From the sequence record PX645697.1: a DNA stretch of 64,000 nt, one strand, 5' to 3'. The notes beneath the pieces were generated by a model that was not told where the DNA came from, ran no database searches, and saw only the letters and a program-made list of their open reading frames with translations. The DNA is from a phage. The position numbers and the translations under genes were made by a program. Of the stretch, positions 38,712 to 51,504 are shown piece after piece (the stretch's first letter is position 1; every line of letters starts with the position of its first letter).

Positions 38712-40556
38712 TTAGTGCGTATGCATCCAGTTGAGTCCAATCTGGCAATCAGAAGCCAGAGGACATTCCATGTTCAAATACTCACCAGCTTTCTTAACAC
38801 AAAGCTCGGTGTGTTCTTTGAGTTTCTGTACATCGTTACGGTTCACTGAGAACTGGCCCTCGTCGTGCATGTCAATTACTTTAGCACAACGAACTCCATC
38901 TTTCTCAATCCATTTGTTAAGGAACATCATAGCATATTTCATAACAACAGCACCAGCACATTGCAGGAGAGTGTTAAGGGCTTTATGAACCATAACCTTT
39001 CCAGTGGCATCCCGTCTCATTGTAATCTTACGACCATCAACTCCAATCAAGTATCCTTGAGCAGCCTTCTCTGTCATACGATCAATGAGGATTGCAATAC
39101 ATGGGTTCTCTGCCAAGAATCGTGCTCGCATCACTGAACCTTCGTCAGCCCCACCACCTACAATCGAACCAAGCTTAGCATCACCAGCACCATAGTTGAA
39201 TGCGTAGATAAACGTCTTAGCGTTGTCACGAGTAGGAAGACCAGCAAGTTTCTGGTTATGGGAGTGGATATCACCTTCAAGAAGAATATCACGATACATA
39301 ATAGCAGAAGCTAAACCACGTTCTGCCAGAGCTTTCTTAGCTGGATTATTCTCTTCGATTGCTTCAGCAAGCATATCCCTACATTCTTTAATGAGGTAGT
39401 GTGCAAGCATACGCAACTCTAATCCAGAACCATCATACCCTAAGAATACTTCTTTACCAGCGGGTATGTAATATTTGTAAGCACCTACAGGTTTGTCTTT
39501 CTTCCCCGGCTTACCTTTCTCATAAATTACGTTAGTACCTTTTCGTATATAACAACCATCAGGAACAACGTTAGTAATAACGAAAGGACGAGAGTGATCA
39601 ACATCTGAGTTATAGTCAGACTCAAACAAACCGCGACACTCATGACCAAACAAACCACGGGAGGGAATATTAACCACGATACGATGTTTGAATCGAAAAG
39701 TCGGCGTAGCGCAGCTGTTAGCTTCTGCCGAAAGTTTACCATCTTCGCGTTCCTTTGCTATGAGTCCACTGATAAGACCTAGCCTGTGAGCCGCTACAAC
39801 GCGTCTCTTAAGCAAACTCCCGACACTCCCTAGCTCACCCCCTAACCCTTCTTCAAGAGTCTCCTCGAGGTTTGTAGGAGCTGTAGGCCACTTGTTTGAG
39901 GTAGCTAGTGCTATCTTAATCTCATCAAAAGTGATAGGTCTACGTCGGTTAGGGTTTAAACCTAAACCAAATACATAAGCCTTCATATAGTTCTTAGTCT
40001 TAAACCTAAAATGCTTCTCTAAGAACTTCCTAATATCAGCGTCAACCATCTCGGCTGTCTGCTTCTGTTTAGCATTACCTCGCATCCAAGCTGAATACCA
40101 TGCTTGGTATGTTCCATACTTTCGCATATCTTTCTTGATTTCAAAAGTATTCCAAGGCTTCTTAGATACGTTAAACTCTGGAGGAAGAAAGCCCTCATCC
40201 ATAAGGGCTTCTTTAACTCGTGCATCTTTCGATGGGTCAAAGTCCACGTATTCAACACAGGTGAATGCTCCACCAATGTCTTCTCTCTTAAGACCAACTC
40301 TATCACAATAGGCTTGAGGCCACTTCTGTAAAGCTCCAGACTTCTTAAATGGCTTCATATAAGTAGAGCCATCTAATCTCATCTTAGGTAAGAGAGGAAT
40401 CAGTTCTTTGTCAATATTAACAATAATCTCTTTAAGGAGGTGAACATACCACCGAGCATTTCTTCGGTTGAAACTCACTCCGTGCTTCGCTTGCTTAGAG
40501 ATTATATCAGCGACAGTCATCTCTGTCAAAAATGGGAGAGCGTCCGGGTTGCTCAC
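38712..40556 (-). CDS. family-A DNA polymerase, polymerase domain only (no exonuclease domain)
   Basis: 614 aa; motif A GYDGSGLELRMLAHY, motif B RDNAKTFIYAFNYGAG, motif C VIDMHDEGQF. Confidence 0.85.
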   Translation of the reverse strand: MSNPDALPFLTEMTVADIISKQAKHGVSFNRRNARWYVHLLKEIIVNIDKELIPLLPKMRLDGSTYMKPFKKSGALQKWPQAYCDRVGLKREDIGGAFTCVEYVDFDPSKDARVKEALMDEGFLPPEFNVSKKPWNTFEIKKDMRKYGTYQAWYSAWMRGNAKQKQTAEMVDADIRKFLEKHFRFKTKNYMKAYVFGLGLNPNRRRPITFDEIKIALATSNKWPTAPTNLEETLEEGLGGELGSVGSLLKRRVVAAHRLGLISGLIAKEREDGKLSAEANSCATPTFRFKHRIVVNIPSRGLFGHECRGLFESDYNSDVDHSRPFVITNVVPDGCYIRKGTNVIYEKGKPGKKDKPVGAYKYYIPAGKEVFLGYDGSGLELRMLAHYLIKECRDMLAEAIEENNPAKKALAERGLASAIMYRDILLEGDIHSHNQKLAGLPTRDNAKTFIYAFNYGAGDAKLGSIVGGGADEGSVMRARFLAENPCIAILIDRMTEKAAQGYLIGVDGRKITMRRDATGKVMVHKALNTLLQCAGAVVMKYAMMFLNKWIEKDGVRCAKVIDMHDEGQFSVNRNDVQKLKEHTELCVKKAGEYLNMECPLASDCQIGLNWMHTH

Positions 40557-40572
40557 TTTATACTCCTTTAAA

Positions 40573-40995
40573 TTATTGGTAAATCAAATCCGTAAATGCT
40601 TGATTGTCTTCTATCACATCTAACACGGTAGCTTCATAACTGTAAGCCCTAACCGCCCCGTTAACAACTATCCGAGGAGTAGGTGGAGGTGGTGCATGGT
40701 TAGCCCTAGCTTCACTAGGTTGCTCTCGTACTAGATGAGCCACAACCCTTTGGTTGGCGACCTCTTCTCTTTCTCGGATAGCTCTCTGGATGTAAGCCAA
40801 CTTCATACCCCAAGCTTCTTCAAACTCTTGAGGGTGCTTATCACTGATAACCACATACTGACGTTCAGGGGTACCAGAGCGAATCTCTGACAATAGTTCA
40901 TGGAACAAATCCAGCTCATGTTCAGTGAGATTCATTTCGATATCATCCCACTTGAGAACTAGGAAACGGTTTTGATGTCTAGTCGGTAATGGCAT
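40573..40995 (-). CDS. hypothetical protein
   Basis: 140-aa ORF. Confidence 0.5.
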   Translation of the reverse strand: MPLPTRHQNRFLVLKWDDIEMNLTEHELDLFHELLSEIRSGTPERQYVVISDKHPQEFEEAWGMKLAYIQRAIREREEVANQRVVAHLVREQPSEARANHAPPPPTPRIVVNGAVRAYSYEATVLDVIEDNQAFTDLIYQ

Positions 40996-40998
40996 AGC

Positions 40999-41283
40999 TT
41001 AACCTTTTGGGAATGGCATTAAAGATTCCATAGCAGTCTTAATTTCACTATTGATTCGTGAATCACGGTAAGAGATAAACTTACCTTTGCTGTCACGTAA
41101 CATCACATGGGTTCTGGATGTTTTGTGAGGGAGCAATGTGATACTGGTTGGGATAGTGTCAACCCCTGCAAGATATGTGTCAATAGTCTTGCTTTCAGTC
41201 AACAGATAAGACCAAGTACGCGGTTTCTGCTCCGGGCGGTTGGGGTATGTGTCTCGAATCTGAACCATAGCTAACTTATTCAT
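40999..41283 (-). CDS. hypothetical protein, paralog of 41285..41536
   Basis: shared C-terminal KGKFISY...LxPFPKG motif with the adjacent gene. Confidence 0.5.
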   Translation of the reverse strand: MNKLAMVQIRDTYPNRPEQKPRTWSYLLTESKTIDTYLAGVDTIPTSITLLPHKTSRTHVMLRDSKGKFISYRDSRINSEIKTAMESLMPFPKG

Positions 41284-49589: not shown

Positions 49590-49598
49590 TCTTATTCC

Positions 49599-50945
49599 TT
49601 AGTTATTTGTTTCTACGTCAAAAGAGATTCCACGACCCGCCTCATCGGCAAACCGAACTGTACGGGTTTGAGGTTCTAATATTTCAGGGTTGTCAGCAAC
49701 AAAGCGATCAGCGAGATTCTGGTTGACGGTCTCAGCAAGCTCCTCATGAGAAGGAACATCAAGACTACCTACCACATCTTGGGAAGAAGCTTCATCAGTC
49801 CAGATAACCCGAGCAGGAACAGCAAAACCCTGACCAGAGAGCTGACGTGCACTAACGTTGAAGCCATTTGGACGACCACGAGAAGGACTAGACATCCATC
49901 TCTCCATAGAATCACTTGTGATACCAAGAGCTTCTTCAAAAGATGTTCTACGAGTAGGGCTTTCTCTTCGTGACTCTTGTGCTCGACGCATTGCAGGGGC
50001 TACAAACACCCCTTCAATTGCATTGTGTCGGTTAGGTTCCTCTTCTCGACCAAGCAGATCACCACCCGTGTTAGTCGTTAAATTTGTCAACCCCTCAGAC
50101 CAATACGCATGAATCTGACCAGAACCGTGAAGACTAGACATAATCTGAATCTCTTCATAAGGGATTCCAAAGAATAGACTCATGTCTCGGTTAACACAAT
50201 ACTGAGCACTTGTTGTATCTTCAATAAGAGAAACCTGACCTAATCCATTAACCAGATGGCTAACTGGCTGAGGTGTAGGAAGGTATCGAGTTTGGGCCAT
50301 ATATTGATATGCAACAGATGGAGCTGAGAATCTTAACACTTGTGAATTAGGCCACTTTTTGTGAACGTATCTGATTTCACGACTAGAAACAACCACAGGA
50401 CAAGGAGAGGTCATAGCTAAATATCCATGAGGGGTCATGAATAAGTTATCAAGAGTCATCGCACCACGGCACATCATAGGAAAATTATCCAACACCTCCT
50501 CAATAGAAGTAGGATAGTTAAACATGAATTGAATGCGGGTTCCATTCCACTGAAATTCAATAATATCAGTGAATGTTAATTGAGAGTTCCCAGCATAGGA
50601 TTCGTTTGTAGATTCAGCAAGAAGAGATGAATATTCAATATCTTGTGACTCAAGCCACTCCTTAACGTTGCTTTCAACCTCTCTTCCAAGATCTTGCCAC
50701 TGATCATGGCGGACGAAAGTGTTTTGGGTTCTTGGTGTTTGTCCTCTGACAATAAAGATATCAATGTCATGTGGAGCTATATTGTTAAGGACAGCATCAC
50801 GAATAGCCCCACCAGTAATGATGGGACAGATACCGTCTGGAATCAAGTTGTTGTTAATCAACTGTTCAATGAAGTGACGACCAACAGTGATATCAGGTTG
50901 TTGAGCAACCTTATCTTCAATTTGGTTAATCGGGATAACAATCAT
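49599..50945 (-). CDS. Pol-beta-superfamily nucleotidyltransferase with CCA-adding-enzyme-like head motif
   Basis: IITGGAIRDAVLNNIAPHDIDIFIV (GGxxRD ... DxD); about 449 aa; start refined to ATG just after exonuclease stop. Confidence 0.55.
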   Translation of the reverse strand: MIVIPINQIEDKVAQQPDITVGRHFIEQLINNNLIPDGICPIITGGAIRDAVLNNIAPHDIDIFIVRGQTPRTQNTFVRHDQWQDLGREVESNVKEWLESQDIEYSSLLAESTNESYAGNSQLTFTDIIEFQWNGTRIQFMFNYPTSIEEVLDNFPMMCRGAMTLDNLFMTPHGYLAMTSPCPVVVSSREIRYVHKKWPNSQVLRFSAPSVAYQYMAQTRYLPTPQPVSHLVNGLGQVSLIEDTTSAQYCVNRDMSLFFGIPYEEIQIMSSLHGSGQIHAYWSEGLTNLTTNTGGDLLGREEEPNRHNAIEGVFVAPAMRRAQESRRESPTRRTSFEEALGITSDSMERWMSSPSRGRPNGFNVSARQLSGQGFAVPARVIWTDEASSQDVVGSLDVPSHEELAETVNQNLADRFVADNPEILEPQTRTVRFADEAGRGISFDVETNN

Positions 50946-50946
50946 T

Positions 50947-51504
50947 TTACATTTTCCAATATAATGAAGGTGGGTCGTAAGGGTCAAATCCCGTGAGTTC
51001 ACACAAGAAAAGATAAACCTTAACAGTTAAGTTAACGTCCTGTTCACAATAAGTAAACATATCTTCAGTGAAAGCATCCCATGCTTCCTCTTGCTCACCG
51101 TAATCTCCTTTAAGTTCCTCTAAGAACTCACCCCATTGCTTCAAGCCGTGACCTCTTGGGCCACGTCTAGGGTCGCCTTTCGGATACTCAGGACTGTCAC
51201 CAATACGGTCAGGTTTAAGATATCGACTAAGACAGAGAGTGTCAAAGACGTTAAAACGATAGTTGATCAGATTGGGATACATCTTCTTCAGAGCACAAAG
51301 GTCGAAGTCAATAATATTATGACCTACGAGCACATCAGCTTCTGTAAGTTTACGAATCCCATCTTCAATTTGGTGAGGCCGATAGCCCCACCTTTCACCA
51401 GTTTCAACATCGAAGATGTAAATACACCATACTTTAGTTATGTCATCGTACAGTGCATTACTCTCGATATCGAATGCAAATACTTTCTTCTTTTTCTTTA
51501 CCAC
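50947..51504 (-). CDS. stand-alone 3'-5' proofreading exonuclease (DnaQ-like, Pol A N-terminal-domain type)
   Basis: 185 aa; Exo I FDIES, Exo [11 protein letters not shown], Exo III YCEQD. Confidence 0.8.

Follow-up and report, generated by a model that had tools for sequence, protein, structure and literature searches.

The 64,000-nucleotide (nt) stretch of phage DNA analyzed here, from sequence record PX645697.1 (hereafter “the window,” always meaning the whole stretch), carries a T7-like family A DNA polymerase (PolA) that is encoded by two separate genes. One specifies a free-standing 3′-5′ exonuclease of 185 amino acids (aa) and lies directly after the primase-helicase gene; the other specifies a 614-aa protein with the polymerase domain only, and is found 10,390 nt further along the same strand (Table 1). 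Together, the two proteins equal one T7-type enzyme, and they have been retained jointly across three phage genera. This layout had been proposed by a model that saw the letters of the DNA and ran no database searches, and its original prediction of two genes about 10 kb apart on one strand was correct in both position and orientation. The arrangement is real, but it is already known, having been recorded in annotations and papers since 2008.

Phage identity and previous descriptions of the split

By protein and nucleotide identity, as well as by gene order, the window is part of the genome of a Kuravirus, a phiEco32-like podophage of Escherichia coli. The nucleotide comparison with Kuravirus genomes covered a 16-kb part of the window. 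This region shows 93-95% nt identity to many Kuravirus records over 83-89% of its length, at least 80% of it is covered in 46 such records, and its gene order agrees with that of phiEco32. Beyond ∼30.7 kb, the rest of the window is transcribed on the minus strand, and the GC skew flips near 30 kb.

In the RefSeq record of phiEco32 (NC_010324), gp53 is a “DNA polymerase” with the note “lacks 5′-3′ and 3′-5′ exonuclease domains,” and gp74 is a “DNA polymerase exonuclease subunit” with the note “contains 3′-5′ exonuclease domain.” These two proteins and their orthologues in Kuravirus and Gordonclarkvirinae have the same lengths as those of the window (185 and 614 aa) and are 97-99.5% identical to them; in phiEco32, the exonuclease likewise follows the primase-helicase, on the same strand and within the same block of middle genes. 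All Kuravirus-like phages are described as sharing the separation, which has been noted in 7-11, Privateer, Vp_R1, and BUCT695 as well, together with a separate 5′-3′ exonuclease (PMC9965538). The LUZ24 group has the same separation, for which the 2008 phiEco32 paper is credited in the case of the E. coli phage (PMC3517423). Fission of the exonuclease and polymerase genes has also been described in T7-like cyanophages by Czernecki et al. in 2023 (PMC10201439). With the split annotated since the first phiEco32 genome, known as a group-wide trait, and published for PolA in general terms of exonuclease/polymerase fission, the understanding of it is unchanged by our analysis.

The 3′-5′ exonuclease gene and its product

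The exonuclease open reading frame (ORF) starts with a GTG that overlaps the stop codon of the primase-helicase gene by 7 nt (GTGGTAA), and a GGAG is found 7 nt 5′ of this start. At the other end, a single base separates the stop codon from the ATG of a nucleotidyltransferase gene (TAAAATG). The product matches Pfam DNA_pol_A_exo1 (PF01612; E=4.5e-8, 33.5 bits against a cut-off of 23.6) and PHROG families termed “DNA polymerase exonuclease subunit” (E=1.8e-78 and 8.5e-38), and it aligns to residues 3-178 of T7 gp5 (E=3.9e-11).

The Exo I-III motifs that had been predicted are present and in order: Exo I (pattern DxE) is DIE at residues 12-14, Exo II (Nx3[F/Y]D) is NIIDFD at 63-68, and Exo III (Yx3D) is YCEQD at 152-156. 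Among 43 stand-alone homologues, down to ∼30% identity, D12, E14, H62, N63, D68, and D156 are invariant and Y152 is conserved in at least 90%. The AlphaFold2 (AF2) model (pLDDT 94.9) has an RNase H-like alpha/beta fold, and its 27 best fold matches in the PDB are all to the exonuclease domain of T7 gp5 (TM-score up to 0.71, query-normalized). Alignment to PolA exonuclease domains was thus obtained in both sequence and fold. The closest proteins, 97-99.5% identical, are those of KM01, ES17, and phiEco32. By sequence and fold, the 185-aa product is a PolA-type DEDDy 3′-5′ exonuclease with every catalytic residue in place.

DEDDy nucleases are versatile, and the weaker fold matches of this protein include TREX, ExoI, RNase T, and diDNase structures; it might then have been repurposed for recombination, host DNA degradation, or anti-defense, leaving the polymerase to replicate without proofreading. 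However, T7 gp5 exonuclease domains account for all of its best sequence and fold matches, and the next nuclease class in the fold search is five orders of magnitude worse. The gene also keeps its ancestral position, and it is kept together with a polymerase-only gene in Kuravirus, Bruynoghevirus, and Lahexavirus, including all Kuravirus-like members according to PMC9965538. We regard repurposing as very improbable.

The polymerase gene and its product

The polymerase ORF starts with a GTG six bases 3′ of an AAGGAG Shine-Dalgarno sequence. Its 614-aa product matches Pfam DNA_pol_A (E=7.3e-23), T7 gp5 (E=1.5e-32), and, more weakly, the Klenow fragment (E=3.9e-6), and it is 99.5% identical to proteins of Escherichia phages EcoN5, Paul, and NJ01. 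All three polymerase motifs of the original prediction were recovered. Motif A (DxSxxE) is DGSGLELR at residues 375-382 and aligns to T7 D475. Motif B, the O-helix (RxxxKxxxYxxxYG), is RDNAKTFIYAFNYG at 443-456, which is almost identical to the T7 sequence RDNAKTFIYGFLYG. Motif C is HDE at 564-566. Across 50 polymerase-only homologues, there is no variation at D375, E380, or H564, and conservation of D565 and E566 is at least 90%.

The AF2 model (pLDDT 91.0) shows the palm, fingers, and thumb of a polymerase, and a Foldseek search of the PDB returned T7 DNA polymerase as the top 27 matches (E down to 1.8e-26), followed by Mycobacterium smegmatis Pol1, Bst, and Taq. By these matches, the 614-aa product is a family A polymerase of the T7-like cluster. 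The E-values obtained for the two proteins lie far outside the range of chance. Both halves of the split enzyme are intact and under purifying selection.

Two further observations concern this gene. A sigma-70 consensus without any mismatch (TTGACA-17 nt-TATAAT plus an extended −10 TG; 12/12) lies in polymerase codons 10-19. It is the same in phiEco32 and Bas93 and differs in LAh_9 and Bruynoghevirus. A 12/12 match is rare by chance, but the encoded peptide EMTVADIIS partly fixes the bases, and conservation among close relatives should be read with their near-identical DNA in mind.

Second, the polymerase match falls into two pieces in the close relatives Bas93, Bas94, PE006, LAMP, pEC-N1203-2Af.1, and 1-6af, which carry an insert of ∼0.3-0.7 kb; where annotated, the insert bears an endonuclease VII/HNH gene. 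In Bas93 (locus L085, 1651..2359), it sits exactly within motif B, corresponding to codons 450/452 of the window polymerase. The Bas93 coding sequence is annotated as a two-piece join, which suggests that the insert is an intron. The polymerase gene of the window, unlike that of Bas93, has no interruption.

The polymerase lacks an exonuclease domain, and the two proteins fit T7 gp5 end to end

The claim that the polymerase is free of exonuclease motifs is borne out by Pfam, hhalign, and motif scans alike. Within residues 1-360, there is no Pfam exonuclease match even at E≤10, and the ordered Exo I-III set is absent from the motif scan. When the exonuclease family was compared with the polymerase family by hhalign, the result was just a 28%-probability match at the junction, which is due to a few of the longer exonuclease homologues that continue into the first polymerase helix. 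In the AF2 model, the polymerase N-terminus consists of two long helices and not of an alpha/beta domain. We therefore reject the idea of a vestigial exonuclease domain in the 614-aa protein, whose excess length relative to T7 is made up of insertions in the thumb, palm, and fingers.

When the two proteins are joined head to tail and aligned by MAFFT, they are colinear with the whole of T7 gp5, and the split corresponds to a domain boundary near T7 residue 210. On the PHROG 17 profile, the exonuclease occupies positions 667-826 and the polymerase 836-1233, and the two matches abut. Compared with fused PolAs, no sequence has been lost or duplicated at the split, and the break lies in the inter-domain segment.

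Both halves match T7 gp5 best, in sequence as in fold, and have all catalytic motifs in common with it. T7 gp5 differs in being one 704-aa polypeptide that works with host thioredoxin, whereas the window has two proteins (799 aa in total) and a phage-encoded thioredoxin. Three insertions account for the extra length of the polymerase over T7: one of ∼90 aa in the thumb region and two flanking motif A, of which the one before it has ∼44 aa and the one after it ∼25 aa. Against this, ∼23 aa are deleted from the thioredoxin-binding region. There, polymerase residues ∼56-134 align weakly to T7 residues 270-356.

The insertions (residues ∼137-240, 318-365, and 390-420) are well folded in the model, with pLDDT mostly >84; the first is helical, the second beta-rich, and the third helical. 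The phage thioredoxin has a CAPC active site, and its true start is probably M19. A phage thioredoxin has been proposed as processivity factor for the related phage Privateer (PMC7881722). In SU10, both the thioredoxin and the polymerase were detected by proteomics.

Relatives, gene order, and the origin of the split

Every polymerase homologue that we found down to ∼33% identity is polymerase-only (∼490-618 aa), and every homologue found by the exonuclease search is a stand-alone protein (101-247 aa). Some of the latter (212-247 aa) extend past the C-terminus of the window protein into the first polymerase helix segment; break points therefore differ between lineages.

A sample of 80 IMG/VR loci holding more distant exonuclease relatives includes the fused form. 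In most of these loci, the primase-helicase is followed directly by one fused gene of 570-650 codons; ∼15-19 of the 80 have a split instead, and here the polymerase ORF is either adjacent or overlaps.

The order of primase-helicase, exonuclease, polymerase, and 5′-3′ exonuclease in the window parallels T7 genes 4-5-6. The same order, with an insert between exonuclease and polymerase, recurs in Bruynoghevirus and Lahexavirus. In Bruynoghevirus p2-10_Or1, five small ORFs (1.7 kb) separate the two genes, and in Lahexavirus LAh_9, they are separated by 9.8 kb of nucleotide-metabolism genes. Taken together, the exonuclease-polymerase gaps form a series: fused; overlapping or adjacent (marine contigs); 0.23 kb; 1.7 kb (Bruynoghevirus); and ∼10 kb (Lahexavirus and Kuravirus). 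This series neatly illustrates how a gene can undergo fission and its halves then move apart, and it offers a convenient system in which to study how a family A polymerase copes without a covalent link to its exonuclease.

The polymerases of Bruynoghevirus (the PaP3/LUZ24/tf group, annotated as “DNA polymerase part I/II”) and of LAh_9 start, like that of the window, at the same point of T7 gp5, and on alignment the break point appears to be common to all three. They differ in being just ∼40-50% identical to the window polymerase, and the Bruynoghevirus protein is ∼70 aa shorter.

In a neighbor-joining (NJ) tree of the conserved polymerase core, the far-split polymerases (those of Kuravirus, Lahexavirus, and Bruynoghevirus, plus metagenomic polymerase-only sequences) form one clade with 94% bootstrap, and a locus with a 232-nt gap (L052) is sister to it with 88%. 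On the simplest reading, one old fission took place in the ancestor of the far-split clade, and accessory genes were later inserted between the halves.

How the two proteins may work together

The explanation that we favor runs as follows. In an ancestor, the gene of a T7 gp5-type polymerase would have been split at the boundary between the exonuclease and polymerase domains, with the exonuclease half staying immediately after the primase-helicase gene. The space between the halves would then have filled with nucleotide-metabolism and small accessory genes, moving the polymerase 10.4 kb downstream on the same strand. The 185- and 614-aa proteins would reassemble non-covalently into a gp5-like heterodimer, within which the smaller subunit would proofread the primer ends made by the larger one. 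As a whole, this is the best explanation available and we hold it with good confidence.

The original prediction reasoned that proofreading would have to act in trans or through a complex, which is a reasonable deduction from the two sequences. Of these options, formation of an exonuclease-polymerase complex, with proofreading by the small subunit, is most likely by analogy, because the break lies between domains without loss of sequence and because a model of a split cyanophage enzyme has been published. In that case, cyanophage S-SBP1, the AlphaFold2 complex of both products superposes on an uninterrupted PolA (PMC10201439). The S-SBP1-like enzymes are likewise T7-cluster family A polymerases, split at the domain boundary and with a shortened thioredoxin-binding region. 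Their genes are adjacent and overlap, as the product of a recent +1 frameshift, in contrast to the old split of the window with its 10.4-kb spacing.

Alternatively, the exonuclease may be a proofreader in trans, freely diffusing or recruited to the replisome, perhaps tethered via the primase-helicase, which would make fidelity tunable. The overlap of the exonuclease start with the primase-helicase stop would suit such a role, as would the equally tight linkage in Bruynoghevirus and the fact that the polymerase is encoded in another stretch, beyond further promoter motifs and terminator-like hairpins. Yet adjacency to the primase-helicase is simply the ancestral gene 4-gene 5 order of T7; fused relatives occupy the same place, and adjacency is uninformative as a sign of a new partnership. 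A break between domains at which neither side lost sequence also speaks against independent action, and the published AF2 model of the analogous split keeps a gp5-like interface (PMC10201439). We consider a proofreader in trans unlikely.

Several points weigh against the split-and-heterodimer explanation, or limit its reach. Monophyly of all split forms, including the adjacent ones, received 31% bootstrap, and one split locus (L008) nests within the fused forms; the split of L008 would reflect either a sequencing frameshift or a recent fission that occurred independently. A single origin of all split PolAs is consequently not supported, nor is shared ancestry of the split with the adjacent-split marine lineages; support is confined to the far-split clade. 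The two genes are not co-translated and are separated by two phage-sigma promoter motifs as well as by two terminator-like hairpins, so that the stoichiometry of exonuclease to polymerase need not be 1:1. Finally, the searchable literature gave no physical or biochemical evidence of a complex or of proofreading for the Kuravirus-like group.

Polymerase and proofreader are separate polypeptides working as a complex in E. coli Pol III (alpha and epsilon) and in archaeal PolD (DP1 and DP2). These enzymes belong to unrelated polymerase families (C and D, not A), and their likeness to the split in the window is one of analogy only. The PolD analogy for split PolA has been drawn before (PMC10201439).

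The interval between the two genes

The interval is tiled by ∼29 minus-strand ORFs of at least 40 aa, which cover 9,990 of its 10,390 nt. The original prediction put the number of genes at about 25; ∼29 ORFs are found here and 20 genes are annotated between exonuclease and polymerase in the phiEco32 RefSeq record. It is in the content of this spacer alone that phiEco32 differs from the window, which has an extra HNH/EndoVII-like ORF by thyX; functionally, the two arrangements do not differ.

That the split might be an artefact, arising from an assembly error, a frameshift, or a pseudogene, is refuted by the 10.4 kb of coding genes between the halves and by the Shine-Dalgarno sequence and start codon that each half has of its own. 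The same layout is also found in independently sequenced Kuravirus genomes and in two other genera, and we give the artefact, in favor of which nothing was found, practically no chance.

Table 1. Features of the split replication module and its surroundings, in coordinates of the window
Feature	Coordinates	Strand	Basis or remark
5′-3′ exonuclease/FEN-like protein, separate, 273 aa	31558..32379	−	Position of T7 gene 6
Family A (T7-like) DNA polymerase, polymerase domain only, 614 aa	38712..40556	−	phiEco32 gp53 homologue
Sigma-70 consensus in the polymerase ORF	40501..40529	−	12/12 match
Intervening block, 10.39 kb, ∼29 ORFs	40557..50946	−	Family matches and ORF tiling
Terminator-like hairpin	41578..41601	−	Just after gp58 homologue; between P58-like promoter motif and polymerase gene
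gp58 homologue	41605..41928	−	
Phage-sigma promoter motif TAATGTATA	41965..41973	−	Exact consensus; upstream of gp58 homologue
PhoH	42346..43089	−	
Ligase-like ORF	43465..43788	−	
ThyX	44534..45217	−	
HNH/EndoVII-like ORF, 150 aa	45183..45635	−	Overlaps thyX start
Thioredoxin	45898..46230	−	CAPC active site
Terminator-like hairpin	46767..46795	−	Just after Dps-like gene homologue
Dps-like protein	46803..47402	−	
Phage-sigma promoter motif AAATGTATA	47728..47736	−	One mismatch to gp36 promoter consensus TAATGTATA; intergenic, upstream of gp68 homologue
dCTP deaminase	49056..49589	−	
Nucleotidyltransferase, 448 aa	49599..50945	−	Weak match to poly(A) polymerase/CCA-adding head domain
3′-5′ exonuclease (DEDDy), putative proofreading subunit, 185 aa	50947..51504	−	phiEco32 gp74 homologue
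DNA primase/helicase (T7 gp4-like), 596 aa	51498..53288	−	PHROG 239 E=1.1e-175; Pfam DnaB_C and Toprim
Ligase/amidotransferase block	54434..63259	−	5′ of primase-helicase

Expression signals

In phiEco32, promoters of the phage sigma factor (consensus TAATGTATA) have been mapped upstream of genes 58 and 68 (PMC4331800), and the polymerase and nucleotide-metabolism genes are reported as middle class (PMC8948821). The window has candidate counterparts of both promoters at the equivalent intergenic positions, one exact and one with a single mismatch. Across the whole window, the count of TAATGTATA equals chance expectation, and for this reason the two assignments rest on position and homology and not on enrichment. 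Each of the two terminator-like hairpins, both of them strong, has a stem of 10-11 bp followed by a T-rich tail.

Given the start/stop overlap, the exonuclease is predicted to be translationally linked to the primase-helicase, with the polymerase downstream of additional candidate promoters and hairpins. As the exonuclease is coupled to the primase-helicase and the polymerase lies behind extra phage-sigma promoters, the two subunits could differ in level or timing. It might even be that the long-range separation is functional, with the subunits made at different levels or times proofreading becoming dissociable and dosage-tunable in a family A replisome, and the three polymerase insertions and the phage thioredoxin perhaps serving as new docking or processivity elements; this is a speculation to which we attach little weight.

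Neighboring genes

Two of the genes within the interval call for comment. The start of the nucleotidyltransferase in the ORF list (51002) is too long, because its PHROG match begins at residue 20. The HNH/EndoVII-like ORF has no counterpart listed at the same position in the phiEco32 RefSeq record and is probably a free-standing homing endonuclease.

The ORF in the position of T7 gene 6 matches PHROG 107, “exonuclease” (E=3e-65), and Pfam 5_3_exonuc_N at 28.3 bits, under the cut-off of 34.3 bits; a PDB sequence search with it returned no match. It is on the PHROG match and the sub-threshold Pfam match that we name it a 5′-3′ exonuclease. Its homologue in YF01, gp27, has been given the same name (PMC9965538).

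On the other side of the module, 5′ of the primase-helicase, the window holds ATP-grasp/RimK-like, GlmS-like amidotransferase, amidoligase, and COOH-NH2 ligase genes. The block is common to Lahexavirus, and at least the GlmS-like amidotransferase is also present in Bruynoghevirus. In relatives (L003, 5400..11700; L004, 5300..12200), it accompanies the split replication module.

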